This document shows positions 9,701 through 52,170 of a stretch of DNA of 64,000 nt, piece by piece. The position numbers and the translations under genes are program-made. The stretch spans positions 84,523-148,522 of the forward strand of contig WELA01001462.1 in the NCBI GenBank assembly GCA_009602735.1. The letters run 5' to 3'. The notes beneath the pieces were generated by a model. It was not told where the DNA came from and ran no database searches. It was given only the letters and a program-made list of their open reading frames with translations. The first letter of the stretch is position 1. The number at the start of each line of letters is the position of its first letter. The DNA is from Mesotaenium endlicherianum. Lineage: Eukaryota.

Positions 9701-12607
9701 ACTTGTGCAGACATCTGCACACACCTGCTGCCGTTGGCAGACCAGCAAGGCATACACACATACTGATTGACGTGTGCAAGTACTTCAAATAAAAGGGACC
9801 GACATCATAATGTAACGTGTGCATTCACAGAACAATGATCGTATCACAAGTTTATGCCCCTGGATATAGGCCGCAAAAGACGAAGGAGATGACAAGCACA
9901 GAGCGGGTTTCAGCATTGGCCTTGAGAAATGCAATTGAAGGGTGTGACTGAATGGTTCTGCCTTTCACATGTCGACACACGCAGGAACAATGAAGCATCC
10001 CCGCCTTCACTTATGTGGCTGAAAACGTAGTTGTCATTGGCATGGAGAAATCTGTGACGCACAAAAAGAAGTATGCCAGAGAGCATGCGAGGCCAGCAAG
10101 CAAGCCAGGTGACAAAGAGCGCAGGCTGGATGAGCTGCGTGGCGTCCTGCCACCTAGCCCTCCCACATGAACGATGAACGTACCATAATGAGAGGGGGTG
10201 GAGGGCACCTATCAGGGAGCCGCCAAATCCTGCACATGGAAGACCAAAGAGATTCTGATGTGTGTGTGCATGAAATACAGAACATTGTCATAGATCAAGA
10301 ATGTACTTCCGCGTGTGAAGCACACTTGCATAATTGTTCATTGACGCATGACTAAGCAAGCAAGCTGCAAGCAAGGAGTCTAAACAAAGAAGTGGGGCAG
10401 CCTATCTATCACGGACTGTTGATTACGATGTCCATATGTCCATATGCAGCAAGAAGAGCAGCTTGAGCAGGAGTAAGAAGAGAAGAAGAAGATAATTGAG
10501 GCGCCCTTACATTCGCATGAACTTTGTGGGGTGATAAAATCGGCAACTATGGCCGAGGGGGCAGCGATTCCAGCACGCGTCCCTACAAATGACGACCTCG
10601 CCTCTGCAACACATCATGGATTTGGATAGGGTAAGAACAACTCAGAACCCTCTTGCGTGTCAATGGCACATCATGCAACACTAGACAGAATTCATCAGCT
10701 GGCAAAACTGCCAGTAGCATTCCATGACAGGAAAGATTCAGAGCACACAACATGGCACACAAGATTCAGAGCTTTAGTTGGCAGGCAGGCAAAGGGGACA
10801 ACATCTTTGATAGGGAATAAAGCAGGGTAACTAAATGAGGCGCGATAGACTGTGGGACTGACCAGCTGACCAACTCTGAGGATAATATAAGATAATCTTA
10901 TGAGCTACCAACTCTTTGGGTAATATAAGATAATATATGTGCATTTCACTCTGCAGGCTACAGCAGCTAGCTCAAGCATGAAGCAAGTTCAGAATGTTGC
11001 TCAGGGCATAATGGCTTGGACTTGCATAGCAGGTCTAATATAGCAAGAGACTCGTAGAGGCATCTGCAAGAAGCGCCCACGTATTGCATGCAGGAAGGTA
11101 TGGAGCTGCTTGCGTTGTATAGATTCAAGAGATGTATTACTCCAGTGCATAAGATTAAGCAAGGCAGGGTTGACTGACCCACCCAATAAAAGGGCGCTCC
11201 AGATGTGCGTAGCGGCATGCGCCAATGCCCCGCTTGCAGGTCCCACTCCTCCCCAGCTGGTACTGGATGCATACCGGAATCTTACTGGGAATGTATGAAG
11301 GCCGCTGCTGTTGCTGGTGTGTTATTGCCACACCGCTCAATGGATTTGAAAGATATGCGAAAGAATGGAGGACTTGAACCTCCATCTGTACAGACAAGGT
11401 GCTGCAGCAGTCAGATACTCAAGTGCAGGATGCACCCTTGTTAGGCTAGAGAGCTATGGAGCTCTTAGAACTGAGATAAGTTAAAGACATAATATTTTGG
11501 ACCTCGGAAGCTGACAGACGATGCCTTCAGTTCCGGTGCTTTCCTCGGGATGCTACATAAGCTGCTTGTAGTGAAGTGTCCAGCTGCCCTTTGAAGCTTC
11601 AGACCACAATACCGAGGTGAAAAAGTGGTCCGATCGACTTGCTCTCCAGGAGGAATCTCAGGGCCGACGTTGGGCAGTTCTCGATGAACGCGATTTCTTT
11701 ATGACTCGGTCCAAACGTTTGTGAGCAAGGGGCCAGAATAATAAATTTTACATTGCTGTAGTGCTAATACATATTAAGTATTACTGCTACTATATATTAC
11801 TTGAAAGCCTGTATTTGTCACCATGCAACCGGTCCGTCGCTCCCTTGGGCATAAAAGCGGTTCTCCGAACGGGCAGGTATTTCAAACGCGGTTGCCACCA
11901 TAAAGCACCATAAAGTAACCAGCTGCTGCTGCTAATCGTCAAGCGTCACAAACTGGCACATTGTGGCCTGGCTCTGGACTACACCGAGAAGACCATCCTG
12001 CACCATCCTGGACATGGGGGAGGATTGACGCTATTTCCAGCTTTGCTACCATGGTGGTCCCACACTTTTCCAAAGCGGTCCCGATGCTGCCTTACGGCTG
12101 CATTCTGAGCGTCGACACAAGATTCCCTTGCTAAAAACTTACGTCATATTCAGGTCATGTTGTCTCCAAGTGACAGCCCCTCCGGAAACTGGGGACTTGA
12201 CATCCTATGCGTCTCGTACAGTCGCCGTCATGCGCGTCATGAAAAGACACGATAAAGTCGAAGCCATGCGGATAACATGAACGGCAGCTAGTATTAAAGC
12301 GTACGAACGTCAAGCAATATACTCGGACATGAATGGCAGGCCTTAGGTGCCACAATTTCTGTGCCACATGGACTCCTGTGTTCCACATGGATGCCACATG
12401 GCAAAAATTTTGTGAAAGGCTGCTCAGTTTGGCTCAGTTGCTCAGAGTGAAGCTGGCAAAGCACGTCATACTGCATCATACAACATCAGACACACCACGG
12501 TGCATCACGGTGCATCACGGCAACTCTGGATTGGCTCGACCACTTTTTAGACATGTGGCATATCCGCTTATTGCCCACCCGAGCGTTACATTTACGGACG
12601 GCATTAA

Positions 12608-13852
12608 TGTCGCGACTACTATCCGTTTGACGGTGCCGCACGCGCAGCGCAAGCTACGGCCACCCAGGTACGGAAGCCAACGTTGACTCACCGACCACTT
12701 GACTGATTACGTCGCAGTCAGCGATTATGTCGGCGTCAAGACCACTGGCAAGGGGTCAATGTCAATGTGCCCCACACCCAGGGATGGGGGAGGTTTTGAC
12801 AGCATAGACAACCGCGAGGCTAGAAGCTGGGGATCAGTGATGAGCTGCCGAGCAGATACCAAGTCCGGTACTGTGTGACTGGCAGATTAAGCCAGGTCAT
12901 GGCCGCAATGCCAAGATAGGTTACGGCCGCCCGGTTGGGAATCTTGAGCAAGTGGCATTTGCTTGTACACGCCGCTCACGAGTTCTTAGCCATGAGCCAA
13001 TTAGGCGTGACTGCCAGCTGAGAAGCTAAGCAGCCACGCGCAACAGTCACGAGGTGTGCATGCATGCTGAGTGACTACGAGTTTGAGTTGAGCATGGCTA
13101 GGCAGAAGCGACATGCAGCTAAGCTTTGTGACTAAGCACGGCATTCTCGAAAGATGACGCTGTGTGGTGCCTGCGAAAGGCACGAATCTTGCCTGAGACA
13201 TGTCATTCACTCTCACGCACTTTTGAGAAGAAGCAGAAGGAGCAGAAGGAGGAGAAGGAAGGAGAAGGGCGCGAAGAAGGAGTTCCCAAGGCCATTGGAG
13301 AGCCGAGGCCCCACGCTTCTGCCGACGCTGAAGATTCTTCTCGGTGTATCATAGATAAGTTAGGATTGTAGGAGTTCCCAAGAGGGAATCTCACTGTTGA
13401 AAGTAGGAGAACAGCACAATCGAATATGCTAGGAGATTAGCACAAATTGGCCGAACGCCACAAGTGTGTGTGAAGCAGCCTTAAAATGGTGAGTTGTGTG
13501 TTGATTTCCAAGTTCTCAGAAGTCGCATTCGCATCTTGAAGAGAGAGGGTAGTGTTGGCAGATAAAGCTCTCAGTGAAGAATTGAGTGAGCCTAGCCTGG
13601 CAGTGAAGAACTGTTAAGGCGCGGTGTTAAGTGAAGAGCTTGACCCAGGCCAGCATAGACGAGTAGTTTCAGAGTTTTGTAAGCTGTGACTTTGTGAAAG
13701 TTAAGCGAAAGCCTGAAGGGCGATTTTCGCTGAATCTGACGTTGCATGTCGAGCTGCTTAGAGTGTGATTTTTGCAAACTACAATTTGCTCGCCTGTGAA
13801 CCCAAGAACCTTAAGGCATAAAGCCTATGTGGAAGTAAGAGACTTCCGTCCT
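12608..13852 (+). repeat. E1 repeat A1 (LTR segment A)
   Basis: Near-identical to 23780-25035; begins TGTCGCGACTACTATCC, ends ACTTCCGTCCT. Confidence 0.95.
13481..13523 (+). promoter_or_regulatory. TATA-like box (TTAAAA 13481-13486) and putative transcript 5' end / self-primer GTTCTCAGAAGT (13512-13523)
   Basis: The 12-mer is the exact reverse complement of 13853-13864; an AT-rich box lies ~25-30 nt upstream in all four A copies. Confidence 0.55.
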
Positions 13853-13864
13853 ACTTCTGAGAAC
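13853..13864 (+). promoter_or_regulatory. Non-tRNA (self-priming type) primer binding site of E1, ACTTCTGAGAAC
   Basis: Directly follows repeat A1, lacks TGG, perfectly complementary to 13512-13523. Confidence 0.7.
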
Positions 13865-13951
13865 CTCGATAACGCGCAAGCCTTTGTACCCAATTTGGGC
13901 AGAGAGCACCGCGTGTGGGGTAAAGTTAGTGAGTCTTGGTCACCATTCGAA

Positions 13952-15345
13952 ATGACTGGTGATGATAAGGATGAAAATCCTAAGTTCAAGTTGTCAAGTG
14001 TTTTAGTGGACGAACCAGTGGAAATAGTCTCACTTTCGAAGAGTTCGATGAGATCTATTGGGCTGATTTCTTTGAGAGAATCCGAAAGGATTTTTCTTAC
14101 ACTCTGTCAGTCGCTTTTATAAGCTTGGTTTAGTACTTGGACAAGGATGCCTCGTTGCTTTATCACCAATTCCGGAAGGATGAGAACCTTACCCAGGAAT
14201 GGGCGTTTGACGAGCAAAAGAAGGCGAGGGATTTAAAAATCCAGAAAGAGGCTGCGAAAGCCCGCCTGTCCGCTTTGTCATTAGGAAGAGCGATACCTGC
14301 TGCACCTGTTGAGAGCATAGACTTAGCTGCACTAACACAAGAATTAACAGATGCCATGAGGCAACTCACCGAGGGTCAGCAGCGAGCCGCTACTCGAGAT
14401 GATGATGCTGGGTCTGTCGCAGAATTGCGTAAAGTGTGTGCAGAATTGTCTGAAAAGATTGCTAATGCTCAGGAACGAGCAACGCGCAGGGCTGCACCTT
14501 TTACAGGGCAGCATGGTGATAGTGCCACCACGGAAGCAAGCCATGCGCAAGCGTTGGCTAGTTGCCGTAGGGATATGGAGGCTGGGAATGACCCGTTAGA
14601 CTCTGAGCACTGTCTGCGTCGTTTCTTTAAGTTGCCTGAAGCAAAATTCCCAAAGGATCGCAGTCTTAAGGTGCACCGTTACGTGCATTTTGTCCGTCGG
14701 AAGAACGAGACAGTGATGGAGGTCAAATTTAGATTGGTAGACCTTGCCAAGAAGGCACGAATCTATGAGCCTAGGATTGTGGCTGACAAATTCTTATTGT
14801 GTTTGGGTAAAGACACAGATCGGGAGGTCAGGCCTCACCTATCTGCGAAACGCGGAATCGACTGGAACATCGACGAGGCTGTTGAAATAGCACGCAATGT
14901 CAAGGAAGGTAAAGTCTAGTACAAGGAGGCTTCCAGGACGCTTATGGCTCCTAAGAGAAAGGAGGAATCCTTTCAGCCTAAGGCCAATAGCTCTAATTTT
15001 TAGTTTAAGAGAAAGAGCGGGTCTTTCAATAGGTTTGCTGAGCACGCCAACACTGCTGAGACAGCACAGAGCTGTTGGAATTGCGGGAAATCAAGACATC
15101 AGAAGAGAGATTGTCCGTACCTGGATGCTAAGCAATTGTTTGCTAGCAAGGCGCAGGTATGCGCGCATTGCAGCAAAAAGGGACACTCATAAGATGAGTG
15201 TTGGTCCAAGAACCCAAATCTGAAGCCACCATGGGCTAATGCTGCCACGAAAGAGGCAGATAAGGGTAAGAAAAAGGAGAAGATAACTCTGGTAACCGAA
15301 AGGGTAACCAGAAGTATGATGCTATTAGTGCAAAGATTGCAGAGT
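13952..15345 (+). pseudogene. E1 gag, disrupted by stops and frameshifts
   Basis: ORF 14137-14919 plus two CCHC knuckles, CWNCGKSRHQKRDC and CAHCSKKGHS*DEC; homologous to E2 gag. Confidence 0.85.
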
Positions 15346-16470
15346 TGAAAGCTCAATTTGCAAAATTAAATGTGCCTAATGTCTATTATGATGCAGATGT
15401 GGCCAAAAAGACCGTCTGCAAAGGCGACAAGCTGACGCCTGAGAAGGCCGTGGCTGCAACGGTTGCGGAGCGCGCAGATCATGATCGTTTGGTTCCAAGG
15501 AATGCTGGGAAGCTTCCTCAGACCTTTCGGATCGCTCTCGATGAGAACGAGATTGCGCAGCTACGACAAGCCAAGCCTGGGCCACGCAAGACATTTAGTT
15601 TTTCGCTAGAGAAGCTGAAGGCTCTGGAGGAACACCGGATTCAGCACATTCCTTGTCTTTCACTCGCTGATCTGCGTCTTACGTATCCTTTCACGGTTGA
15701 AGAAGTCGGACAGCAACTGGACATAGCTGAGGAAGGCGTAAACAGCGCTTTGCTGCCTACTAACTTCAGCACTGTGAGAGTGCAGAACAAGGATAGAGTT
15801 TTGACATTCAACGACTGGGCCGCTCCCAATATCCTATTGGACATTGGCGCACAGCCAGTAATCTTGGGAAAGCAAGTTGTGAAAGCTCTGGGATTGACGG
15901 CAAGGGACCTGAAAGAAAGTCCTTTTCAGTTGAGGAATGCATCTGGGCAGATTTCAAAGTCTTGTGGAATTACCCTCAAGCCTGTGAAAATCACAGTAAA
16001 CTTGGGGAAACCTGAGGAGGCGTCACTGCTCATAGAATGCACGGTGACAGAGGCAGAGAACTATGATGTTCTCTTGGGGACAGAAGCTCTGATTCCCCTG
16101 GGTATGGTCATCGACCTGCGGAAGCAGAGGGTGACTTACCAGTCGACAGATCGGCAACCGACAGGAGAAATTCCTGTAAAAATGGTTTGCTCGAGAGAGG
16201 CGAACTACGGACTGCTAGACTGTTGTGTGAATGACCGGTATCCAGACCATTATGACCTCATCATGCAACGCAAAGAGGAGGGCTACACCAGCGTCAACAT
16301 GCCGACTCCCTTGGTTTGGCAACCTCGGATTATGGAGCAACTGGAAGCTGTGAGTAACAGGGACCGTGGCCCGCAAGAGCTGCTGCCAAATCCTTATCCA
16401 ATTAAGTCTGCTGCCAATTTGATGCCTGGAGTAGACCTGCTGCCGCAAGGCATTGTGAGGATGGAAAATC
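15345..16470 (+). pseudogene. E1 linker and retropepsin aspartic protease
   Basis: ILLDIGAQPVILG (D[ST]GA-like active site) and YDVLLGTEAL motif in ORF 15345-16505. Confidence 0.85.
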
Positions 16471-16475
16471 CTTTT

Positions 16476-17460
16476 CGCAGGAGAGGAGTAGTAGTGCTGG
16501 AATAGTTTGCCGGACTTGGTCTTGGAACCATCTCACTGATTCAGCGAGGTATCCAGGTATCTAAAGTGCTGTATGTGGACAATGATGAGAGTGCTTTCAC
16601 AGCATTTTAAGAAGGTCATGAGTCAGATCCGGCAAATGCATCATTTCAAGGCGTTGGTGCCTACTGACTCTAGTTTGGTGCGTCTTGCTGGAGGAAACAT
16701 TCTCGATGTGAAGTCTGAGGACCTTTATGGTAACATGATTGACTAAATCTTTGTGGGATTCCCTTGTCAACCTTTCTCGCAAGCTGGGAACAGGAGGGGA
16801 TTCAATGACCCGCGAGCACAACACTGGGGATGGATGGTGAAAATCATCGGTATGCTGCGAGAACGCCAGCATCTCTACCCACCAGTGTTTGTGATTGAGA
16901 ATGTACATCCAGGGATGGATTACAACCAGATGAAGCCAGGAGATCCACGGCTGGTCTTCGACTCCACCCTGGGTCATCATGTATTGATCAACGACGCCAA
17001 GCACGGAGGACTCTCACACCAGGCCAGACTATTCTGGACCAACGGCATGTCCATTGAAATCCTGAGGGAGATGGAGGAGATTACGCGGCGCTCACCAACA
17101 GCAGTATCTGTGGGAGAAGCACTGATGGTGGAAACCAAGCCAGTGATCAGGAGGGATTCCTACCCACAGTACGTCGTCAACAAGTCAGGCCGNTCAGGCC
17201 AGCCAAGGGTGGTGCTGCCCACCTTCACGACATACCCAGGATCACGCGCATTCGTGAATGGAGGACCAGGAATGGTCAAGAATGCGCACGACATAAAAGC
17301 TCAGTGGAGAGAGCCGACAGCTGAAGAGAAGGGTAGGAGCCTGGGGGTACCCAACTCCACAAGAAATTGTTGCGATGGTGGGACAGGACGACGCTGGGAA
17401 GATATTCGGCAATATGATTGGGTATCACTCCATGACGTGGTTGGTGGAGACGATTATGAC
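16476..17460 (+). pseudogene. C5-cytosine DNA methyltransferase domain embedded in the E1 polyprotein (DNMT3-like)
   Basis: Motif I VVLE*FAGLG (16506-16520), II YVDND, IV GFPCQPFSQAG, VI FVIENV, VIII QARLFWTN, IX REPTAEEK, X IFGNMI; contains stops and frameshifts. Confidence 0.9.
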
Positions 17461-19199
17461 TTGGCAGCAGATGACATTCTCTGACAAGCCTATGCCCAGG
17501 CCAAGACCAGTAACAATTGGAGTCCATGTGGTGCTAACCTCTGATCAGAGAGCTATCAGGGAAGCGCAGCAGCGACAAGAAGAATATGCTGTTGAAGTAC
17601 GCCAGTGCAATATTGACGAATGGGCCAAAGAATGCACTCAGAATTCAGGAAATTCTGGAGGGTCTGGAAAGACCATTTGCCTGGAGGTGATCTTTGAAGA
17701 ACGCAGGAAGGAGACGGTCGAGAGATTGCCCGCCAAACCTGTTCTGATGAGCCCAGAGCCAGAGGCCAAAGGGCAACCACAAGACACAGATGGCAGCACA
17801 GCTGAGTCGATCACCAGGCGAATCATGGAGCAGTTGCTGGAAGCAGATGCCCCTTGACTCAAGGAAGAGAAAGTGGCAAAAGCAACTCGCGCTCTACAGT
17901 CAGCCATCATCAACATGGCGAGGCTCAACACAAGAGGGCATGAAGAACCGCCGCCTCCTGGAATAGAGAAGCCGAAGGAGGGAGAGGATGCAAAGATGCA
18001 AGGCCTCCTAGAGTTGGAGTTGCCATCACTCAACAATGGAGAGGAAGCCAGGGAAGAAATTCCACGTTTTCCCACGCCAGACTTGGATCTGCTTGACTTG
18101 CAGGAGTTGAGGACATACAACTGGGTAGCTGACCACCTGATGGGGCCAAGCCCGGCAGACCTTTATGAAGAACTAAGGTCACCAACATCCAGTAACCCTA
18201 CTGCCAGTCTTTCAGTGGCAGAGCCCAAGTCAACCGGACGACCGCCGCAACAGCAGAAGGTGACTGCCTGCACTGCTAAAGTGGAGACAGCGCAAGGTAA
18301 GCCCAAGGGTCGCGCAAGCAGACCAAGGAAGGTGGCCCGTGAGGGTAACGCATCTTTTAGGAGGATGCTAAAGCGATATTTCAAGCATAAGGGGAAGGCT
18401 CAGAGAGAGGGCGCTCCGCGAGGAACCACAGCCCTACCTCCTCCGCCTCTGCGGGATATTCTGCAGAGAGAGGAAGAGGACGGCTTGATTCGCAGGGCAA
18501 TGGCATTGGACATTAGTGTGCCGCCAGGCATTAACACGCCTTTGTTGCAACTATCAGATCTTAGGATGCAGAGGCCGGAGGCACCTGCTCCCATGAGAAC
18601 TGCAATCCCAGAATGGGAACTGATGGATCTGAGAAACACCATCAGCCGCTTGACCGCAACAGATGATGCTTTCCTCGCACAACTAGCGGCACCTCAAAGG
18701 CCGCAAACATTGGCGCAGGCATGGACGGTCACACCACCCGCAAGGGAGGAGTATGGCACGACCGTCGCCCGCATGGCTATTATTGAACGAGAGTGGGGCT
18801 GGGTAATCAGCCCTAGGACAGATACTGCAGGTTGGTCAGTGGCAAACCAACCCCGGCCACGTGAAGAAGGAGGAACCGGGACCAGTTGCACTGCAGTCGA
18901 CGAAGAAAGGTTCCTGAGGCAACCCATCCGGAGGCGCCTGACGTACACCTCACAGCAAGAAAGGCGACGCGTCATTGGGAAAGGTAAAAAGCCTAGGAAA
19001 CAGGCTGCAAAGCCTATGGCAACGGAGGAGCAAGCTGCAAAGCCTGCTACCCTGAGAGCCAAAATCAGGCAGAAAAGCCTGAGGGCCAGGATGAGGGCGA
19101 AAAGCCCCCACCTGCACCCAAGGAGTAGCAACTACTGGATGCCTTTGTTGGGGAGAAGCAACCTGAAACTGAGACTTTTGCCATTGGGAACATGGTCTC

Positions 19200-21830
19200 A
19201 GCCCAGCAGAGAGCACAAGTAGAAAGGTTGCTGAAGAAACACCGCAAGGTGTTTGCTTTTACTAAGGAGAAGATTGGTAGAACCACTGCCAGTGTGTGTG
19301 AGATTACCCTAACTACTGATAACCTAGTCAGACTTGGGCCGCATAAGCTCAGTTAGACAGAGTGGGACTGTGTGGAGAAAACTTGCGAAGAGCTGCATAA
19401 GCTCCGCTTGATTGAAAAATCTACCTAAGTGCATGGGGCTCCCACAGTAGTAGTCGCTAAAAAGGACGAGGTCGGCAATTACATTGCCACTCGTATGTGT
19501 GGAGATTACAGGCGACTGAATCTCTACACGGAGTTAGACAGCTATGTGATGCCTACGCCGGAGCGGATCTTTGCGATTGCCACCACCGGGAAGGTGTTCA
19601 GCATCATCGATCTGCGCCAAGGCTTCAACCAGATCCCTGTGAAGATTGAGGTAAGACCGCTTTCTGGGCTCAAAGGGAACTTTGGCAATGGACAGTAATG
19701 CCATTTGGGTTGAAAAATGCCCCAGCCATATTTCAGAGGACTATGGATAAAGTGCTGGAGGGGCTGGATTTTGCTAAGCTATACATTAACGATGTGGTAG
19801 TATTCAGCAAGCCCATAGAGGAGCACCTCGAGCACTTGGAACAAGTGATCCAGCACCTGGAGAAATTCCAGATGAAGCTGCATCCTTGGAAGTGCAGATT
19901 CTTTGAGGCACACGTGCCCTACCTAGGACATGAGATTGGGAACAATGCTATGTCCCCTCAGGCTATGAAGACTGAGGCTATTTACAAGATACCTGCACCT
20001 GCGAATGTGTCTAAGCTGAAAGCTCTGTTAGGGCTAAGCGGATACTATCGTAACTTTGTAAAGGATTATAGCAGAATTACTGTAATGAATCAGCTCATTA
20101 TTTATTTATTTAATTGCATATATAAATATAATACTAAATAAGTATTATGTCAATATACTCACATGTGCGAGTTCATCTAAATGAATGTATGTCGATGTAA
20201 TGCGAGTTTACTTACTTTGTCAAAACTGTCAGCAGGATGACTTTTGTATCACAGTATAGTCTCCTGACTTGTTGAGAAGGTCAGCAGGATGACATTTGTA
20301 TCATAGTATAGTTTGCTGAGATTTGTATATCAGTTATATATAGGATGTAATATCAGTAGGTTGACATAAAGTAAGCTCTCCTCATATTAGTCAGTCAGTA
20401 TACTTAGCTTCAGTACGCTGAGGATAGATTATTATTTATAGATTGGCACATGTGACCGTAGTATACTGAAAGTCGGAAGGTCGACTGAGATTCGGTAAAC
20501 CAATGTCCTACTAGTGTGGTTAACTCCTGGGTGGGCGGAGCCGTCGTCAGTCAACTGAACAATTAGGACTTCAGTCAACCGACCAAGTAATATGGTCGTT
20601 ATACCTAGATCCGTGAGTCCCAACTTAACGGGTTTCCCACGAAACGGCGCACCTTGCGCCGTGGTCAACCAGGTGGTCACTAGGTACATAGCTGGCTGGG
20701 ATCTCGTGGTCCCTCATTCTGGACAGTAGGCTTTACAGTCGGATTCCTACTTGCAAGTCATGTGTGCACTTTTGGGTTCGTTCTAATGACCAGCCTTCAC
20801 AAAAGTTGACATGGCTGCGTTGTCTGCGCTCCAAATGGAGCGAGCTAGGACTTTTCTGAAAGGTCTCGTCAAGATGCATCCGTTGCCGTTAAGTTTGCTC
20901 AATTTGGAGTTGTATTGGCAGAGTTATGCCCTCTGACATTTTGGGGTCACATAGCGGACAGATTCCATGGTTTTGCACCTAAGTCAGTGGGAAGTGTTTT
21001 AGCTACATAATGGTCACCTGAATGAGAGCGCCTTTGCTATTCAGTCCCCTGATGTTGTGCATGTGCTATACATGCTTGGATGCCCGGTAGGCAAGAGGCC
21101 ATGAGTTTCTATAAGAGAAGCTCAAGTCCTCAAGCTCGCCTCTTACTTGTGCCTCGTGTTAGTGTGCAACTATGGCGCACTACGGTAAATGAGTCAAGGG
21201 GTGTAGATGAGTACATGGAATTCATTATAAGGGCAAGATCGCTCCCTGATTTCACACGCTTCCACCTATCTCTGATCTTATATATTTAAATGAAATATAT
21301 TAATCTTGAATAAGCAAGATTCATTTCAATTGCTAAACCCATGACGGAACTTCTGAAAAAGGATGTGCCTTTTGTGTGGACAGAACTTCAGGAGAAAGCC
21401 ATGAACGAGCTTAAGGAGCGGCTGGTAACAGCCCAAATCTTGCGAACGCCTAACTACTCCAACCTTTTCAATCTGCACACTGACTGGAGTCGTGTGGGAA
21501 TTGGCGCAGTGCTCACTCAGGCCGCAAGCCCTAGAGAGGAGTATGTCATTGCCTATGCCTCACGCTCTAACAATCGAGCGGAGAGCAACTACTCGTCCTA
21601 CAAAGGAGAGCTGCTGGCAGTGGTTTGGGCTGTCACACACTTCAGAGAGTATCTGTGGGGAACACCCTTCACGCTGATCACGGATCACTCACCATTACTA
21701 TGGCTGATGAAGAATGGAGACCTCACTGGTAAGTTGGCTCGCTGGGCTCTTAAGCTGCAAGAGTACCAAATGACGGTGGTACACAAAGCAGGAGTGCTCA
21801 ACAACGACGCCGATGGACTCAGCTGGAACC
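19200..21830 (+). pseudogene. E1 reverse transcriptase-RNase H, split by solo LTR 20081-21328
   Basis: RMCGDYRRLN, IDLRQGFNQIP, MPFGLKNAPAIFQR, LYINDVVVFS (YxDD mutated), LHTDWSRVGIGAVL, ELLAVVWAV, TDHSPL, NNDADGLS. Confidence 0.95.
20081..21328 (+). mobile_element. Solo LTR (family C) inserted in E1 pol
   Basis: TGTAATGAAT...ATTCATTTCA inverted ends; TSD ATTAC/ATTGC; removal restores DYSRI-AKPMTELL; homologous to 25669-26930. Confidence 0.92.
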
Positions 21831-22129
21831 CAGACCCATCTTCAGATGATAGAACAGGAGCTCGAGAGGACGAAGATCCGAGCAGCCCAGCAGAGTTGGT
21901 GGCCTGCCTAGCCAAAATGGCTGGAATGGTAGCATCAGGTGAAGCTGAGCCTCTACCCCTGTTCAGTCTAGAGATCTGGAAAGATTAAGCTACTATGCAC
22001 TGGCTGAAGATGGGAACTCACTTGGAGGGGCTATCAGTGAAGGAGAAGGACCAGGTAAGCCATCGAGCTAAAAGGTTTTGCTAGAAACGCAACAACCTCT
22101 TCAAAATTGAAGAAACTGGTCAGGAGAAG

Positions 22130-23426
22130 TTAGTGCCAGAACCCATCAGGAGACGAGCTCTTGTGCAGGAAATGCACGAGAACACTGGACACTATGGTGT
22201 CAAGAAGACGTATAGTCTTTTGGAGCTGTCTTACTGGTGGAGGGGCATGAAGCAGCAGTGTGAAGATGTGATCAAGACCTGCCAAAGCTGTGATCGCGTC
22301 AAGGCTGGTTTTACACAGCAACATCCACACTTGGAACCTTTGCCAATCATGGGCCTAGGCTACCACTGGAGCTGCGATCTCGCAGGTGAGCTACCGCTGT
22401 CTAAGCGAGGTAACAAGTATATCATGGTCGTGATTGAGCATTTCTTCAAGTGGATAGAGGTCGTGCCTCTGACTGCTAAGGAGAGTCTAGGGACCGCGGA
22501 AGCACTCCTCAATGGTGTGATTGTGCGTCATGGAGCTCCAGCATAAGTGCCAAGGGTCTGAGTTCCAAGGGTCTTTTCAGAAACTCTTGGATAGATGCTT
22601 CATCGATCATCGCACTACCTCTAGAGATCATCCGCAAGCAGATGGTCTGGCAGAATGGATGGTGCAAACCATTAAGTCTGCTTTGCGCTAGTTTTGCCTT
22701 GAGCATGACAAGCGTGACTAGGATCTGGCCCTGGCATGGCTGGTTATGGGTCACAGATTTAGCAAGCAGGCTGCCTTGGCGACTTACCCGCCATATCAGA
22801 TATTGTTTGGCAGAAGTCCAGTAGTGCCCAGCAGCATCAAGCAGGAGATTGAACAGGTGAAAGACATGGACAGCCCTGATGAACTGCTAAAGGTGATGGT
22901 ACGTCGTAAGGTGTTATTTGAGCGCATGATGCCGGCTGCGCTGGACAATCTGAAAATTGCGCAGAAAAGAGATACGCAGCGTTACGCCAGGACGCGAGAC
23001 GAGAGCTACCGCCTGCAGATGACGCAGATTCAAGAAGGAGACTTCGTCTACCGCAAGCGCCAGACCAAGACCACCATCGACACCAATTCAGGTGCAGTGA
23101 TCTTACGCGTGAAACATGCGTTTGATAATGGTGTGTTAGAACTGGAAGGTTCTGATGGTAAAACCATGAGAGACCACGTGCAGAATTGCTCGCTATGCCA
23201 TTTGCCAAATATTGATCCTACGGTTAGGGTTGTGCCCAAGGAATTGGTGCCAGCCACGCCTTGTGCCAGCTGCAAAGTGCTGGATGATCAGGAAGCAATG
23301 GTAACTTGGCATAAGTGTGGTGCCCGTTGGCACACTTTCTGCATTGGCGAGGAAGAGATTATGGCAGGACGATGGGAATGTCCTGACTGCCTTCCTAAAC
23401 CCCCTAGCCGCAGGGCTGGAAAATAA
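22130..23426 (+). pseudogene. E1 DDE integrase with C-terminal PHD finger
   Basis: HHCC (HENTGHYG..CQSC), WSCDLAG, IEHFFKW, HPQADGLAE; C-terminus CASC..(W)HKC..WHTFC..GRWECPDC. Confidence 0.92.
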
Positions 23427-23461
23427 TGGCTTTCAGCAGAAAAGGCAGGGACGCCTCAGCT

Positions 23462-23473
23462 GAAAGGAAGGGG
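23462..23473 (+). promoter_or_regulatory. E1 polypurine tract GAAAGGAAGGGG
   Basis: Purine run shortly after the pol stop and directly before TGTAAG, the start of repeat B1. Confidence 0.85.
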
Positions 23474-23777
23474 TGTAAGAGGAATTAAGGCAAGGCAAGT
23501 ACTTTTAAAATTTTCTGCTACGTCTTAGGATAAGCAGATGGTGAGAGCTGGGTGAAGGAGAACATTGCTCTGAGTGTTGGTCATGGTTGCATGGTGCAAG
23601 TTCAGGAGCCCAGGGATGGGTCAACCTTGGTAAGGCTTGTCACCGACACACGTGCGAAGGTCGATCGACCATGTTTGCCCACACGTGAGGAGGGCCACCG
23701 ACACATTGACTAGGTCGAAGGCACACGTGCTGGAAGACTACGCACGTGCCGAGGGACCGACACTGTTAGGCACGACA
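23474..23777 (+). repeat. E1 repeat B1 (304 bp)
   Basis: Near-identical and equal in length to 25036-25339; ends GGCACGACA. Confidence 0.95.
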
Positions 23778-23779
23778 GC

Positions 23780-25035
23780 TGTCGCGACTACTATCCGTTT
23801 GACGGTGCCGCACGCGCAGTGCAAGCTACGGCCACCCAGGTACAAAATGTCAACGTTGACTCACCGACCACTTGACTGATTACGTCGCAGTCAGCGATTA
23901 TGTCGGCGTCAAGACCACTGGCAAGGGGTCAACGTCAATGTGCCCCACACCCAGGGATGGGGGAGGTTTTGACAGCATAGACAGCCGCGAGGCTAGAAGC
24001 TGGGGATCAGTGATGAGCGGCCCAGCAGGTACCAAGTCGGGTACTGTGTGACTGGCAAATTAAGCCAGGTCATGGCCGCAATGCCAAGATAGGTTACGGC
24101 CGCCCGGTTGGGAATCTTGAGCAAGTGGCATTTGCTTGTACACGCCGCTCAGGAGTTCTTAACCATGAGCCAATTAGGCGTGACTGCCAGCTGAGAAGCT
24201 AAGCAGCCACGCGCAACAGTCACGAGGTGTGCATGCATGCTGAGTGACTACGAGTTTGAGTTGAGCATGGCTAGGCAGAAGCGACATGCAGCTAAGCTTT
24301 GTGACTAAGCACGGCATTCTCGAAAGATGACGCTGTGTGGTGCCTGCGAAAGGCACGAATCTTGCCTGAGACATGTCATTCACTCTCACGCACTTTTGCC
24401 AAGAAGCAGAAGGAGCAGAAGGAGCAGAAGGAAGGAGAAGAAGGGCGCGAAGAAGAAGAAGGAGTTCCCAAGGCCATTGGAGAGCCGAGGCCCCACGCTT
24501 CTGCCGACGCTGAAGATTCTTCTCAGTGTATCATGGATAAGTTAGGATTGTAGGAGTTCCCAAGTGAGAATCTCACTGTTGAAAGTAGGAGCACTGCAAA
24601 ATAGAATCTGCTAGGAGATTAGCACAGATTCGGCCAAACGCCACAAGTGTGTGTGAAGCAGCCTTAAAATGGTGAGTTGTGTGTTAGTTTCCAAGTTCTC
24701 AGAAGTCGCATTCGCATCTCGAAGAGAGAGGGTAGTGTTGGCAGATAAAGCTCTCAGTGAAGAACTGAGTGAGCCTAGCCTGGCAGTGAAGAGCTGTTAA
24801 GGCGCGGTGTTAAGTGAAGAGCTTGACCCAGGCCAGCAGAGACAAGTAGTTTCAGAGTTTTGTAAGCTGTGACTTTGTGAAAGTTAAGCGAAAGCCTGAA
24901 GGGCAATTTTCTCTTTATCTGACGTTGTATGTCAAGCTGCTTAGAGTGTGATTTCTGCAAACTACAATTTGCTCGCCTGTGAACCCAAGAACCTTAAGGC
25001 ATAAAGCCTATGTGGAAATAAGAGACTTCCGTCCT
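23780..25035 (+). repeat. E1 repeat A2
   Basis: Copy of 12608-13852; joined to B1 by GC, forming the palindrome CGACAGCTGTCG. Confidence 0.95.
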
Positions 25036-25339
25036 TGTAAGAGGAATTAAGGCAAGGCAAGTATTTTTAAAATTTTCTGCTAAGTCTTAGGATAAGCAGA
25101 TGGTGAGAGCTGGGTGAAGGAGAACATTGCTCTGAGTGTTGGTCATGGTTGCATGGTGCAAGTTCAGGAGCCCAGGGATGGGTCAACCTTGGTAAGGCTT
25201 GTCGCCGACATACGTGCAAAGGTCAATCGACCATGTTTGCCCACACGTGAGGAGGGCCACCGACACATCGACCAGGTCGAAGGCACACGTGCTGGAAGGC
25301 TACGCACGTGCCGAGAGACCGACACTGTTAGGCACGACA
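25036..25339 (+). repeat. E1 repeat B2 (right terminus)
   Basis: Copy of B1; ends CACGACA followed by the TTAA TSD. Confidence 0.93.
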
Positions 25340-25668
25340 TTAAGAACGTATGCTTGCCGCGACATTAGGACGCCAATTAGACGTCACCGACATAAGGCCC
25401 CGAGCTCACCCTAGAGAGCTCCTTTGGATAGAAGATATAGGATTGAATTACAATCAAGTTTTTGACTATCGATGGTAAACTTACTTTTGACTATCAATGT
25501 CGCGACTGCTATCCATCTGACGGTGCCGCGCGCGCAACGCAAGTCACGGCCGCCCAGGTACGAAAGTCAGTGTTGACTTCAGTTCCATCAATTGACCACC
25601 GACAGGTCAGCACTACTTCAGGCCACGTGTGAACTTGCCCAAAGCTTAGGTCAAACCCGACGTTCAGG

Positions 25669-26930
25669 AGTACTGAATCAGTTCATTATTTATTTAAATA
25701 ATTGCATATATAAATATAACACTAAATAAGTATTATGTCTATATACTCACATGTGCGAGTTCATCTAAATGAATGTATGTCGATGTAATGCGAGTTTACT
25801 TACTTTGTCAAAAAGGTCAGCAGGATGACTTTTGTATCATAGTGTGGTTTGCTGACATTGTTGAAAAAGTCACCAGGATGACTTCTGTATCATAGTATAG
25901 TTTGCTGAGATTTATATATCAGTTATATACAGGATATAATATCAGTAGGTTGACATATAGTAAGCTCGCTTGATATTAGTCAATATACTTAGCTTCAGTA
26001 CGCTGAGGATAGACATATTCATTTAGATTGTTATTTGTAGATTGGCACATGTGACCGTAGTATACTGAAAGTCGGGAGGTCGACTGAGATTCGGTAAACC
26101 GATGTCCTACCAGTGTGGTTGACTCCTGGGTAGGCGGAGTCGTCGTCAGTCAACTAAACAGTTAGGACTTCAATCAACCGACCAAGTAATATGGTCGTTA
26201 TACCTAGATCCGTGGGTCCCAACTTAACGGGTTTCCCACGAAACGGCGCACCTTGCGCCGTGGTCAACCAGGTGGTCACTAGGTACATAGCTGGCTGGGA
26301 TCTCGTGGTCCCTCATTCTGGACAGTAGGCTTTACAGTCGGATTTCTACTTGCAAGTGATGTGTGCACTTTTTGGGTTCGTTCTAATGACCAGCCTTCAC
26401 GGAAATTGCCATGGCTGATTCGTTTGCGCTTCATTTGGAGCGAACTAGGACTTTTCGGAAAGGTCTCGTCAAGATGCATCCGTTGCCGTTAAGTTTGCTC
26501 AATTTGGAGTTTTATTGGCAGAGTTATGCCCTCTGACATTTTGGGGTCACACAGCGGACAGATTCCATGGTTTTGCACCTAAGTCAGTGGGAAGTGTTTT
26601 AACTACATAATGGTCACCTGAATGAGAGCGCCTTTGCTATTCAGTCCCCTGATGTTGTGTATGTGCTTACACATGCTTGTATGCCTCGTAGGCAAGAGGT
26701 CATGAGTTTCTAAAGGAGAAGCTCTAGTCCTCAAGCTCGCCTCTTTCTTGTGCCTTGTATTCGCTTGCAACTATGGCACACTACGATAAATGAGTCAAGG
26801 GTTATAGTTGAGTAAACGGAATTCATTATAAGGGCGAAGATCGCTCCCTGATTTCACACGCTTCCACCTATCTCTGATTCTATATATTTACATGAAATAT
26901 ATTAATCTTGAATAGGCAACATTCATTTTA
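25669..26930 (+). mobile_element. Solo LTR (family C) inserted in E2 repeat A1'
   Basis: Homologous to 20081-21328; TSD TCAGG/TCAAG; empty site visible in A2' near 33990. Confidence 0.9.
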
Positions 26931-27880
26931 TCAAGGGTAAGTGGGGTTCCATAGTCCAGTCAGCCAAAAAGTTGACTAAGCTAAAGCCTGCAAGAATGAA
27001 CAGATCAGCCGAAAAGCTGACTAGGCTGAAGAGCCTGGAGGAAACGCCAAGTCAACTGCGAAGCTGACCGTGCTGCAGACATGCAGAAGTTGCCGAGTCA
27101 GAAGCGCAGACCGGACGGCGATCTTTGTCGCTGGACTTGGGCCAAGGTGGCCACGACTTAAGGAGCCACCCAAGGGACATGGGTTGCGACGTTACCCAGG
27201 CTTGCATGTAATCGAGAAGTTTAGTTGCTCGAGTGATAAACTCGAGATTGCATGCATGCGTTGTGTGCGAGGTGTGACGCAGCATGGGAACTCGAGAGAG
27301 AGAGAGAGAGGCCTGCATGCGTGGTGCCTGGGTAAGGCACAAGCGTTGCACGATCTCGCCGTGCAACATTCTTGCCGTGCACATTTGCCAAGGCAGCAGA
27401 AGAAGCGCAAGAGAGAGAAGAAGAGAAGAGAAGGGCACGAAGGAGAAAGGAGTTTCCAAGGCCACAGGAGAGCCAAGGAAGCACGCTCTAGCCAATGCTC
27501 GAAGATTACTTCTCTGTGTATTATAGAAAAGTTAGAGTTAAGGAGTTCCTAATAATGGATCTCTCCGATAGAAAGTAGCGAGAGCTTGCAAAATAGAATC
27601 TGCTAGGATTTCTAGCGCAGAGTTGGACCAGACACCACAAGCGTGCGAAAGCACATAATATGGTGAGTATTGTGTTAGTTTCCAAGTTCTCAGAAGTCTC
27701 TTTTGTCGAATTGTTGAAAGCAAGAGCATAATTAACCAGGAAGACTCTCAGGGAAGAGTTGAGTGAGCCTAGCCAGCAATGTGAATTACTAAGGTGCGAT
27801 GTTTGGCGAAGAGCTCAAACCAGGCTGGCATAGATGCCATAGTTTCAGAGTTTTGTAAGCTGTGATTTTGTGAAAGTTAA

Positions 27881-30800
27881 CACTAGGTCGACAATGGTGC
27901 CAAATGTGGACCTAGAACCAAAAAAAAGTACCACTGGAGGCCTATATTCAGCCACGTGTTTCTATACTTTTTTTTAATCAAAAGATAATGAGACTTGTAT
28001 GCCTGGAACCACAAAGATCTGAACTCAATCGAAAAAATAGTTTCAAAGCGAACGGACGAGTACTGACAAAGTTGTACGACTTTCTCGGCCAAGAAGCAGT
28101 AACAAAATCGAATAGATTAGGTCAATATTTTCTCACTCAAAAGCACTCTATACTTCTTTCTTGTGCCCTGTAACAGCCATGGCTGCCACTGCATCTTTGT
28201 CTAGAGGTGTCGTGGTAGGAATAGGCACTAGAATACTAAATCCTAGCAAGATTTGGGAGAAAGTATGGGCACAGCAATCGGATTGGAGTTTGAGCAATTT
28301 ATCTGATCGGAGAGCTTGAAGAGAGATCACTAAGTACTAAGAAAGTAAGTATAAGATATACTTTGCATATGATGGGAGTATAAGACATCGAAGAGTTTGT
28401 TCAGATTGCAGCACATTCCAAAAGTACCCGAAATAGAGGGGGTGAAGCCATATGAGGAAGTTAGGATCCGAGCTGAATCTAGCCCTAATTTGCTAAACCC
28501 TGCAGTTGAGAGCCCTCCTCAGATGAGAACAGGAATCACTATAGAAAAAGAGGAGACTGTTGTAGAGGATAGAGGGTCACCAGAGCTGTCAGATGAGGAG
28601 TTTGAAGTAGCAAATGACGAGGAGGAAGAAGATATGAAGCTGGTTAGAAAGAGGGGAAGGCCTATTAAGGATAAGGGACCTGCTTTTGATGTACCAAGTT
28701 GCAGGGAGGAGAAACAGTACAGAAAGGAGGCAGCCAAAGAAACAAGGAGGAAGAGATATAAGAGGGGATATAAACAGAAGAGAGGAGTAGACTCGGAGAG
28801 TGAGGAGCACAGCTCAGATCGGAGCTGGAATCAGAAGAAGAGCCCCTGCTGTGTGAAGATTTCGAGGAGGAAGAAGAAGCTGGACCAGAGTATGCCTGGA
28901 GAGAAGCTGAAGTGCCAGAGGGGTTGAAGAAACTCGTGAGCACTATGGGCACATGCTTGACCAGGATGAGAAGTGAGCACTTCAATCACTTCTCTCCATG
29001 GGCTGTGCTCTGCACGCTTGTTACAATTGATTGGTATGACATGATGTGCGCGGAGACCAACGCTTATGCAGCAGCTGAAGGGGCCAAGAAGTGGGTCATC
29101 CTTAGTACCACAGACCTCATTCTTTGGCATGGTCTTTGTATTGCCATGGCTCTCAACCCTTTGCCTAGATACACACACTATTGGAGGAGTAACAAATCTG
29201 GTCCCGTTCAATTTCCAGGCTTTGGAAAATGGATGTCTAGAGATGAATGGATTCAAATAAAGAGATACTTACATTGCAAATGCAGGTAGAAATGTATTTC
29301 ATAGGAATTCAGGAGAGTACATGTAGTGATTAGAGTTATAATATATTAGTTTGCATATATTATAATACTTTTGAATATATTTGGAGTAGTATTGTGTGGA
29401 GTCAAGTGTGAATAGATATTCTAGTGACTTGGTTCATGTCCTCTGAACCTTCTAAGGCATTTTCAAAGTTAGAGGAAGAACCTAGAAGAACTTCATGTGC
29501 CATTTTTAGGTCAAAAGGACATGTGTACATTATTCTAGAAAGAGGTGGCAAGTTTTGGGATGCGTTGGGTGCCAACACATCAACATGCACCTTCCTAGAA
29601 ATTACTTATGTAGCAAGTATATAAACAAGAGCTAGAACATAGAAAGATATTCCAGAATTACTCTTGTACTTGCCAAATTCCAGAAATATATTAACTTTCA
29701 AGAAGCCATCTCTCTTCCAAGAAGCTACCACTTGTGTTTGAAGATCCTTGTCTTGAATAGATAGAATATTTTATTTCACAAAGCACTTTATCTATCTGTT
29801 TCACTACAGTAGAGGCTGTGGCAGTGTCAGTCTGTTATAAACTTGCTAAAAGAAGACATTCACCACCTACTACAATCCGGGCCAGCACATGACCATAGAT
29901 GAGAGGCTAGCTCCAATTAGAAATAGAATGTGTCTTGTCAGAGTGTATTGTCCTAAGAAAGCATATAAATTTGGTATAGAAATCTTCACACTGGTTGACT
30001 CTATTACATACTACTGCTGGGACTTCATTGTGTATGATAAAATGAAAGTCATTGAGAGGAACACAAAAATAGTCATGGGCCTGGTCAGTACCTTGCCAGA
30101 AAATCAGACTTACAGTTTTGTTTTGAATAGAAGTTTTACATGTCCTTCTCTTCTCCAAAAGCTGTCAGAGTTGGGTCATGGAGCTACTGGAACTGTAGAG
30201 ATTAATAGGAAGCATTTTCCTAAGCATGACTTGAAGTTGGATGTGAAAGCAGACTATGGTAGTTTCAAAGCTCGAGGTCTGAATGTAGTAGAGGTTGAGA
30301 GAAGGCAGAAAGGAGGAGGGAAGAGAATTGTCCCTTGTCTTGAAATTATTTTTCATTACAACCAATACAAGGATGCAGTGGATCAGTGTGATAAGCTCTG
30401 CCTTCGCGACAACTACTCTGTTGAGACTAAATAGGTGGCTCAAAAGTGGTGGCATTGCCTGTAGTGGGGCCTGTATGATGGTGCTATTGCTAATGCTTTC
30501 ATCCTCTATCAGCTGGCTCACCCTGACAAGGACAGGTACTCCTTTATGCTTGAGTTGGTGGAGGAGATGACAACAGGGGTTCATTTTCGCGCCATGTTGC
30601 CGAGGGTTGCGTCTAATGGTAGCCAGTCAGGAATAGCAGGGGAGGCTAGATGGACTGCAAGGCACTTTTCTAACCATGTGCATAAGGGAGTGAGGGCTAA
30701 TTGTGTCATTTGCATGTCTAAGAAGTTTTATCAGGAAGCAGCAAAAAGGAAGACTAGGTGCCAGTTCATGTGTCCACCGTGCAACGTGCACATGTGTCTT

Positions 30801-31563
30801 GATACTTGTTTTGAGATCTTTCACACCACTAGAAACATCATGCATGTAGATGTTCCTCCATTTAGGCTCCTTAATGGCTTCTTGGACCAGCAGTAGTTGG
30901 GAGTTCAGAAAGATTAATAACACTATTATTTTTATGAGTAATAGGATGCATAGACTCCATTTTGCGACGCCTCGACTCTTGGGGCTGTTGCATCATATGC
31001 CCTAAATTTTTCTATGCACATTCTTGAGACATCAGTGGTGCAGTGTTGCTTAGTAATAGGTGAATACAACAAAACAAGAATCACTAAAATGCATGCAGTA
31101 TTTTTGGAAATATGTCAGAAATATTTTGCTGCTTCAACACCTTGCTCCTTAAGTTGTGGAACCACCCAAGAAAAACCTGGTGTCAATTTTGACACCAAAG
31201 TTTGAGAGGTTGCTGCTGTATTTGTAGTGAATGAATTGCAGATTTGTAAAGTGCAATGCACTCTACACACCATAGGGTAGGCTAGGAAAAATTTAGCAGG
31301 CACCACTTTGCTGTACTTTTCCGGATACTGCGGCTGAAAGAAATGTACTTTTTCCTCGCTCGCGTGCAGTCCCACTGAAAGTACCAAAAGTACCATACAT
31401 ACCGGCGCTAAAATTGGAATTCTTACATTGGCAGAAACCTTATTCAAATGTGCATGTGGACATGCATGGCTTGCTTGTACCACGTTAGTACTAATTTTAA
31501 TATGACATTCAAAAACAGCTCCCCGTGGTGTCAGTTCTGGTTCCACAAACAGTAAACCTAGTG
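27881..31563 (+). mobile_element. piggyBac-like DNA transposon PB1
   Basis: TTAA TSD (27877-27880, 31564-31567); TIR CACTAGGTCGAC / GTAAACCTAGTG; empty site GAAAGTTAAGC in other A copies. Confidence 0.92.
28179..30896 (+). pseudogene. piggyBac transposase, frameshifted, with an insertion at ~29285-29810
   Basis: ETNAYA, MSRDEWIQIKRYLH, YNPGQHMTIDE, PKKAYKFGIEIF, LNRSFT, GATGTV, YNQYKDAVDQCD, C-terminal Cys-rich CVIC..CPPCNVHMCLDTCFEIFH. Confidence 0.9.
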
Positions 31564-31722
31564 TTAAGCGAAAACCCTGGTGGGTGATTTTCTCTGAACA
31601 TTGGTGCTGTGTGTATGTGTTAACCTGCTTAGACGTGATTTTTGCAAACTTACAAATTTGTTCACTTGGTTAAACCGTCAACTTGGGCGAAAATCTATTT
31701 GGAAGTAAGGCACCCCTGTCCT

Positions 31723-31736
31723 ACTTCTGAGAACTT
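31723..31736 (+). promoter_or_regulatory. Self-priming type PBS of E2, ACTTCTGAGAACTT
   Basis: 14/14 reverse complement of 27684-27697 in the E2 LTR. Confidence 0.7.
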
Positions 31737-32096
31737 CAATTGAGTGGTTCAGGTAAACAAGAATTTCCAAGCAAATTGAGGATTGAGGCCTGTAAAGGCT
31801 GCCAATGCTCAACCTGGAAAGGGACTCGGGGAAATTGAACTGTACATGCGATTGAGGAGTGGAAGAATTTATCATTTTGTGGAGCCTGCAGAAGGCTCTG
31901 ATTCTAGCTAGTGCCCACGAAAAAGTAAGACATCTGAGCGGTCTGACAACTCGTGGAGTGAGCGACCATTGAGAGACGAGCCTCGCCGTATCTCTGCAAA
32001 CGGTGAGAATTCGTATAACGCACGTTTCTTTTCACCTGATTGGGCAAAGAACAAGATTTGTGGGTAAGAGTCAGTGAAACCTGGTCACCGATAGAT

Positions 32097-33970: not shown

Positions 33971-34119
33971 AAGTCACGTCAAACCCGACGCTCAGGGGTG
34001 AGTGGGGTTCCACAGTCCAGTCAGTCGAAAAGGTGACTAAGCTAAAGCCTGCAAGAATTGACAGGTCAACCGAGAAGCTGACTAGGCTGAAGAGCCGGGA
34101 GGAAACGCCAAGTCAGCTG

Positions 34120-34482
34120 CCTAGTTTTAAAATACGGATACGGCCTGTACGGATACGGCATGTACGGATGCGTATATACGGGTGTGTCAAAATTATACTC
34201 AAAATACGCCAAAATACGCCAAGCATGTTTGCGGCTGTAACTTTTGGAAAGTTTGAAATTTGTAAATTTTGTCGATCGCGTTAGGTGGAAAATGACAAGC
34301 GCGTCAAGAATAGATGGTCAAAAAAATCTAAAAAAATGTCAACCATCCGCCTGTAGAGGGGAAAAAGTTATTTTGGTATTGAATTAAACAACCAATCACT
34401 ATTATTTCAAGTTTCTTTTTGATACGTACACGGAGGATCGGTACGGCAAGCTAGGCCGATACGCGAGTATTTTAAAACTAGG
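34120..34482. mobile_element. hAT-type MITE
   Basis: 16-bp TIR CCTAGTTTTAAAATAC; 8-bp TSD GTCAGCTG; empty site near 27050. Confidence 0.92.
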
Positions 34483-51900: not shown

Positions 51901-51934
51901 CGACCAGCGCAGAAGGGGGGGCACAGCGACGGCG

Positions 51935-52170
51935 CTACAGCAGCGCCAGCGCTAGGTGACCGCCAGCGCCAGGTGCGTCAGCGCTAGTGCCAGTGCCAGC
52001 GCCAAGTGCGCCACCACCACCGCCAGCGCCAGTGCCAGCGCCAAGTGCGCCACCACCAGAACCAGCGCCAGCGCCAGGTGCGCCAGCGTTAGCGCCACTT
52101 GCAGCGCCAGCGCTAGGTTCGCCAGCGCCACCCGCGACCCCAGCGCCAGGTGCGCCAGCACCAACGCTAG
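51935..52170. repeat. (GCGCCA)n-type minisatellite encoding Gly/Ala-rich sequence on the minus strand
   Basis: Repeated gcgccagcgcca / gtgccagcgcca units; may be the start of the DIRS ORF1. Confidence 0.7.

Follow-up and report, generated by a model that had tools for sequence, protein, structure and literature searches.

How does a Ty3/gypsy retrotransposon come to be integrated by ends that lie inside its own repeats? The question is raised by an element at positions 12608 to 25339 of a 64,000-nucleotide (nt) stretch of Mesotaenium endlicherianum DNA (contig WELA01001462.1, positions 84,523 to 148,522, forward strand), hereafter the window. Its long terminal repeat (LTR) is split into two segments, A and B, which are arranged as A-internal-B-A-B. 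We find that this layout is a family trait, shared clade-wide. We propose that the ends of the complementary DNA (cDNA) are probably joined before the element's own DDE integrase cuts a palindrome inside the repeat.

Layout and priming of the element

The element runs in the order TTAA, A1, primer-binding site (PBS), internal region, polypurine tract (PPT), B1, GC, A2, B2, TTAA:

12604..12607, + strand: left target-site duplication, TTAA
12608..13852, + strand: repeat A1, which starts TGTCG, the left integrated end, and carries the predicted promoter, R and U5
13512..13523, + strand: 12-mer complementary to the PBS, the predicted transcript 5' end and self-primer (A2 copy at 24695)
13853..13864, + strand: PBS, directly 3' of A1
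23462..23473, + strand: PPT, GAAAGGAAGGGG
23474..23777, + strand: repeat B1, ending CACGACA
23773..23784, no strand assigned: internal palindrome CGACA-GC-TGTCG, the putative attachment site, conserved in relatives
23780..25035, + strand: repeat A2, from self-comparison of the window
25035..25036, + strand: A/B joint, where the end set by the PBS meets the start set by the PPT, zero bases being gained or lost
25036..25339, + strand: repeat B2, ending CGACA, the right integrated end
25340..25343, + strand: right target-site duplication, TTAA

A GC spacer thus separates B1 from A2, and A2 passes into B2 without one. An earlier note on this DNA had described the A-internal-B-A-B layout with the same coordinates, TG...CA ends and TTAA duplication, all of which we confirm. 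It had also placed the end of A at CCTAC; A actually ends in CCGTCCT (13852), and CCTAC takes in the first two bases of the PBS. In the self-comparison, A1 and A2 are 95.8% identical and B1 and B2 96.7% (Kimura two-parameter divergence 0.035 for the A pair and 0.034 for the B pair). B2 therefore differs from B1 as much as A2 does from A1, which fits a single insertion event for all four repeats and not a late or misassembled B2.

The 12 bases that follow A1 are complementary at 12/12 positions to 13512-13523 inside A, a match that was reached by 1/300 shuffles for A1 and 0/300 for A2. Two families from metagenomes have the same complementarity between PBS and repeat. The three families thus carry three different 12-mers, each of which fits its own PBS. 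The complement is exact in 5/7 copies of one metagenome family and falls below significance in some decayed copies (L019, A1 of L068 and A1 of L078). No transfer RNA (tRNA) genes were found in the window. The complement inside A predicts self-priming, a mode known for Tf1/Sushi and Tcn1 (PMC6317226). It also fixes the reverse-transcription repeat as B-GC-A, which upholds the definition that the earlier note had drawn from PPT and PBS.

Termini, internal site and joint among relatives

A second, diverged copy of this type lies in the window itself; it was absent from the earlier note:

25498..35805, + strand: element 2, in the order TCAA, A' (interrupted), PBS at 31723, gag and protease start, deletion, A2', AC, B', TCAA

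Element 2 also starts at A and ends at B, with the TCAA duplication on both sides. Its A2' ends at 35458 and is followed by AC and then by B' (35461-35805); the deletion removed B1' and the internal site. Identity to the window's element is 79% in gag and 70-75% in the repeats. Two later features interrupt it. A piggyBac-like insertion occupies 27881-31563, within the left repeat; its ends are short and inverted, and TTAA is duplicated around it. A small element with inverted ends of ~16 bp and an 8-bp duplication lies inside A2' (34120-34482). A piggyBac origin was also considered for the TTAA duplication of the window's element, and was rejected because other copies duplicate other 4-mers.

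Many further insertions share these boundaries. In run X1, which is possibly the window's own sample, 63 contigs among the matches listed diverge just before the A start (23780) and 42 just after the B end (23777). The flanks are unlike one another, with an agreement of 0.38 at the A start and 0.39 at the B end. No loose ends at the B start or the A end occur among the matches listed (17 rows). A raw RNA run gave 65 reads, 63% of which continue unlike the reference; these were not used as evidence.

The metagenome scan covered the best 80 of 505 confirmed loci; with L081, from a viral collection, the set comprised 81 loci. Self-BLAST was applied to 66 of the 81, excluding 15 with little or no DNA past the integrase, and recovered the full A-internal-B-A-B layout in seven full-length relatives. 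All 81 loci were also searched with A and B of two families. A usable right end was present in 55 loci, corresponding to 44 distinct flanks. Half of these (22) have an A/B joint and the other half (22) only one B; CA is the terminus, at the B end, in 43 of the 44. This count drops five loci with truncated repeats (L020, L039, L040, L057 and L075), places three loci without B1 in the A/B class and includes two ends set by hand at a copy of CACGACA 15 nt upstream. All left ends (12/12) begin at A with no preceding B. Among the 12 elements for which both ends are available, including the two in the window, the 4-bp duplication is exact in nine and differs by one transition in two. Conventional copies, with two complete LTRs and ends set by PPT and PBS, were not seen among the usable ends of the relatives.

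The main prediction of the earlier note thus held: the A half-site forms the left end of the copies and the B half-site the right end, with 4-bp duplications. The earlier note had also considered that most copies might be conventional, with duplications flanking TGTAAG...CCTAC; none of this kind appeared among the ends examined.

Two observations on these ends and repeats stand apart. L023 (at 10159) and L035 (at 2403) end at CACGACA 15 nt before the usual B end, either because a cryptic half-site was cut or through slippage at a later time. In 5/5 relatives (L019, L027, L036, L044 and L068), the two A copies differ from each other more than the two B copies do (0.09-0.12 vs 0.05-0.10), unlike in the window's element; conversion between the closely spaced B copies is one possibility.

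The internal palindrome, CA-GC-TG, is conserved across families, whereas the remainder of the repeat is not. Its spacer measures 2 nt in 22/22 sites (GC 7, AC 8, GT 3, AT 2, AA 1, TC 1), and 20 of these spacers are GC or deamination products of GC. CA-GC-TG (CA-GT-TG in one) follows the PPT even in L001, L002 and L074, whose repeats are unrelated, and in L014 both arms of the palindrome have been altered in step, to GGCA-GC-TGCC. In L030, L033, L043 and L042, neither a PPT nor an internal site was found past the integrase. The repeat ends defined by PPT and PBS carry no conserved TG/CA: B starts with TG here and with AT, AG or CG in relatives. The TG of TGTAAG was thus rejected as an integrase end, and its presence at the B start of the window's element is probably incidental. 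Note that the palindrome at 23773-23784 contains CG and CHG sites, so that, as a speculation, the methyltransferase encoded by the element might mark the two cDNA sites apart.

The A/B joint is variable. In a set of 17 distinct insertions from a single family, the joint is flush in about 10, as judged by boundaries set from the commonest joint, and lacks 2 nt at a microhomology in four; of the others, one gains the first base of the PBS, one has a G as an extra or changed base and one loses ~8 nt. In element 2, the joint contains two additional bases, AC, with which the PBS also begins. A fixed spacer together with a variable joint would fit a templated enzyme site plus a join that is made afresh in each cycle.

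Proposed joining of the cDNA ends and rival routes

These patterns make it probable that the cDNA ends are joined head to tail, and that the element's DDE integrase then cuts the internal palindrome before insertion. The RNA would start inside A and prime itself at the PBS, and ordinary reverse transcription would yield a linear B-GC-A-internal-B-GC-A molecule whose ends lack a conserved TG/CA. The two ends would then be joined, probably as a two-repeat circle, which would create the A/B joint. Integrase would nick both strands of the palindrome 3' of CA. Each resulting end would carry a CA-3'OH and a 5' overhang of 2 nt, as after ordinary 3' processing, and strand transfer would generate the 4-bp duplication. 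Cutting at the left-hand site alone would give a copy with R at both RNA ends, able to replicate again, whereas single-B copies (A-internal-B) would be dead ends that arise from one-repeat circles or later recombination. HIV-1 integrase is known to cleave a palindromic LTR-LTR junction in vitro (PMC1905944). The earlier note had already suggested a circle and an attachment site within the LTR. The site gains support from its conservation across families with unrelated repeats; the circle is deduced from the A/B joint.

Relatives in Chlamydomonas reinhardtii bear on the order of joining and cutting. In Gypsy-7a_cRei, which has a PHD finger in its polyprotein, the left LTR is short by the last 8 bp of the right LTR (PMC9940879). 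The element is active, with 86 new insertions in the laboratory strain CC-4532 (PMC9940879). We read the library entries of the same publication by eye, as text, for a signature with two parts: at the end of the internal entry, a purine run is followed by a short B with a terminal CA and then by GC, and the LTR entry closes with that same B. Eight of the 12 Gypsy families with both boundaries visible carry it (Gypsy-3, -5 on the reverse strand, -6, -7, -8, -9, -10 and -11), and four look conventional (Gypsy-1, -4, -12 and -13); Gypsy-2, -14 and -15 fall outside the 12 families judged. Gypsy-7a_cRei and its kin resemble the window's element as PHD-bearing Gypsy elements with a purine run-B-GC sequence and a repeated B. 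However, B is about 50 nt long in three Chlamydomonas families and 6-8 nt in five, compared with 304 nt in the window's element. Furthermore, the PBS of Gypsy-7 begins TGG, so this family is probably tRNA-primed, whereas the window's element is predicted to be self-primed. In the sections of PMC9940879 that concern these elements, a shorter left LTR is documented for Gypsy-7a only, and the asymmetry is not interpreted.

Integrase protects about 20 bp of each end (PMC11054761). A B of 6-8 nt is shorter than this footprint, and the short-B families of Chlamydomonas therefore suggest that joining precedes cutting. We consider it likely that a green-lineage branch of Ty3/gypsy, extending from Chlamydomonas to land plants, has abandoned linear-end integration and must join its ends and cut a templated CA-GC-TG; the B sizes of 6-8, 50, 115-180 and 304-345 nt would then record an inward drift of the site.

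Several points weigh against end joining followed by an integrase cut. The circle, the cDNA intermediates and the cutting by integrase are all deduced from sequence, and a two-LTR-circle precursor has been refuted for retroviruses (PMC11054761). A plain two-LTR circle of the kind first suggested is symmetric, and half of its products should be of the mirror form, A-B-A-internal-B, yet this form occurs in 0/9 two-repeat elements (p about 0.002). In long-B families the two sites share their context, and a symmetric circle does not account for the choice of the left-hand one; in short-B families the contexts differ and could bias the cut. A single B at 22/44 distinct right ends also departs from the expected layout, and could reflect one-repeat circles, recombination or short-read collapse. 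One of the 12 two-ended elements, L036, has no target-site duplication. The way in which flush joints were delimited is a further caution, and rare conventional ends may exist in the window's own family beyond the matches listed for X1.

Other routes might lead to the same copies. No ligated circle would be needed if reverse transcriptase, on running out of template, jumped to the opposite end of the cDNA, leaving a branched or nicked molecule to be cut at the internal site. A one-strand jump would account for the absent mirror form, and template jumps also fit the microhomology losses and the bases of PBS or PPT that stay behind at the joint. However, end-joining fits the same joint spectrum, so the data do not separate the two, and we know of no such template jump for a Ty3/gypsy reverse transcriptase; we regard this route as unlikely, if less so than the other rivals. 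Cutting might also come first, with integrase acting on the left site of a linear cDNA and inserting both halves, and host repair joining A and B in the chromosome. The final layout, the duplication and the variable joint would be the same, but a B of 6-8 nt would leave a piece too short to serve as an integrase end, and a chromosome break would be expected at every insertion. We therefore think this order of events improbable.

A symmetric two-repeat circle could also be cut at either site if the mirror product then collapsed to A-internal-B, by recombination between its long, adjacent A copies or in assembly. The 22 to 22 ratio of single-B to B-A-B right ends is what such a process would give, and in all families measured A exceeds B in length. 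Against it, no mirror form survives among 14 left ends (12 from metagenomes and two in the window), and the 86 new Chlamydomonas insertions are termed 'the same 15.4-kb' element (PMC9940879), which leaves us with little confidence in this explanation. It is very doubtful that a PAT or Ngaro tyrosine recombinase acts in trans. Although PAT and Ngaro have their repeats arranged in this same way (PMC4157794, PMC8547959), the varied 4-bp duplications, TG...CA ends and a DDE triad that is intact in relatives are the marks of an integrase, and no tyrosine recombinase was found in the element. The layout at this particular locus is read from assembled sequence alone, which leaves misassembly or a one-off rearrangement after insertion to be considered. 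Such an accident is almost certainly not the explanation, given the equal divergence of the two repeat pairs and a layout common to element 2, 105 flank-bearing X1 contigs (among the matches listed) and the seven full-length relatives.

Known systems and coding content

The window's element is a Ty3/gypsy element in all but how its ends relate to its repeats, and it is not a member of PAT or Ngaro. With canonical Ty3/gypsy elements, including Tf1/Sushi and Tcn1, it has in common the domain order, DDE integrase, PPT, TG...CA ends and 4-bp duplication (PMC6317226). In those elements, however, the integrated ends are the reverse-transcription ends and both LTRs are complete, which is not so here. 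Tcn1 and Tf1 are also chromoviruses (PMC6317226), whereas the window's element has a PHD finger and no C-terminal chromodomain. PAT, TOC1 and Ngaro share its A1-ORFs-B1-A2-B2 split direct repeats (ORF, open reading frame) but encode a tyrosine recombinase instead of a DDE integrase (PMC4157794, PMC8547959); unlike them, the window's element has TG...CA ends, a PPT, a PBS and 4-bp duplications.

The closest precedent that we found is KnitGypsy-Dnmt3 of Klebsormidium nitens, described in 2018 with DIRS-type repeats and Gypsy domains in the legend of Fig. 4c (PMC5890265). Like the window's element, it combines a cytosine methyltransferase in a Gypsy pol with A-coding-B-A-B repeats (PMC5890265). 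The passages on this element are silent on an attachment site, a duplication, the mode of priming and the mechanism, and its main text does not mention a PHD finger (PMC5890265). The name KnitGypsy-Dnmt3 was not found in three supplements of that paper. Proteins of K. nitens share a weakly supported tree group with the window's element; KnitGypsy-Dnmt3 itself may be among them. The earlier note had known of no description of such repeats for a DDE-integrase element. The legend provides one for the layout; the statement holds for the mechanism, of which we found no account in the literature searched (most subscription papers, Repbase Reports and Craig's 2021 thesis were outside its scope). New here are the predicted self-priming, the variable A/B joint as opposed to a fixed 2-nt spacer, and the signature in 8/12 Chlamydomonas Gypsy families.

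The cleavage of retroviral circle junctions is alike in that a DDE enzyme cuts a palindrome of two abutted ends, but there the palindrome forms at the ligated ends and the reaction is a side route (PMC1905944, PMC11054761). In the window's element, the palindrome is templated within the repeat, apart from the ligated joint, and cutting it appears to be the sole route. At the circle junctions of the IS3 family, too, a DDE enzyme cuts a palindrome of abutted ends.

For retroviruses and LTR retrotransposons, it is settled knowledge that the DDE integrase works on the ends of a linear cDNA (PMC11054761). If our proposal is true, this branch would be a natural exception to that rule, using a route once proposed, and then refuted, for retroviruses. 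The split-repeat layout would also be decoupled from tyrosine recombinases and thus convergent, which bears on the origin of DIRS-order elements. The long-B members would escape surveys in which a hit must have two LTRs as a pair, TG/CA termini and a duplication (PMC6317226). A direct test is within reach, because Gypsy-7a_cRei, a relative that carries the signature described above, is mobile in widely used laboratory strains of Chlamydomonas.

The coding region of the window's element is as follows:

14134..15270, + strand: remnant of gag, interrupted by stops; its two zinc knuckles are recognised in the translation (no match in Pfam)
15828..16091, + strand: aspartic protease (PF13975, E 1.3e-5)
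16490..17481, + strand: C5 cytosine methyltransferase within pol, with stops and frameshifts (PF00145, E 4.5e-11)
19195..20081, + strand: reverse transcriptase, broken (PF00078, E 3.8e-20)
20082..21326, no strand assigned: later 1.25-kb insertion of an unrelated repeat within reverse transcriptase-RNase H
21335..21985, + strand: RNase H (PF17917, E 1e-35)
22085..23426, + strand: integrase, with an HHCC finger and a DDE core that is disrupted near 22545, followed by a PHD finger at the C terminus

The domain order, gag-protease-methyltransferase-reverse transcriptase-RNase H-DDE integrase-PHD, matches that of Ty3/gypsy; the methyltransferase and PHD domains, which the earlier note lacked, were found here by Pfam. 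The copy is dead, with many stops and frameshifts, the integrase break and the 1.25-kb insertion. Its D,D(35)E triad is broken at the second Asp, whereas the triad is intact in 17/17 aligned relatives. The solved structures closest to a relative's integrase are those of Ty3 and foamy virus. Pfam gave no match to a tyrosine recombinase in 10 ORFs of the window, nor in another 43 translated ORFs, taken from the two strands of the window's element, L027 and L019.

The PF00145 methyltransferase is present in the window's element and in L027, and weakly in L019; against the PDB it gives a weak match, to M.HaeIII (E 0.006). Named protein homologs come from liverworts, Klebsormidium and green algae. 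In a quick RNase H tree, the element groups with liverwort and Klebsormidium proteins in a 51-row group with weak support (SH-aLRT 84), and L081, a single distant contig from a viral collection, falls outside the element's clade. Homologs and tree together make it likely that the host is a green plant, though not a seed plant.

The insertion at 20082-21326 has a counterpart at 25670-26928. The two are AT-rich, non-coding, 1.25 kb long and 92% identical, and each of the two retroelements carries one. The window also contains 384 N, and long ORFs outside the element lie at 47827-51936 (a group with internal repeats) and at 59837-62552.

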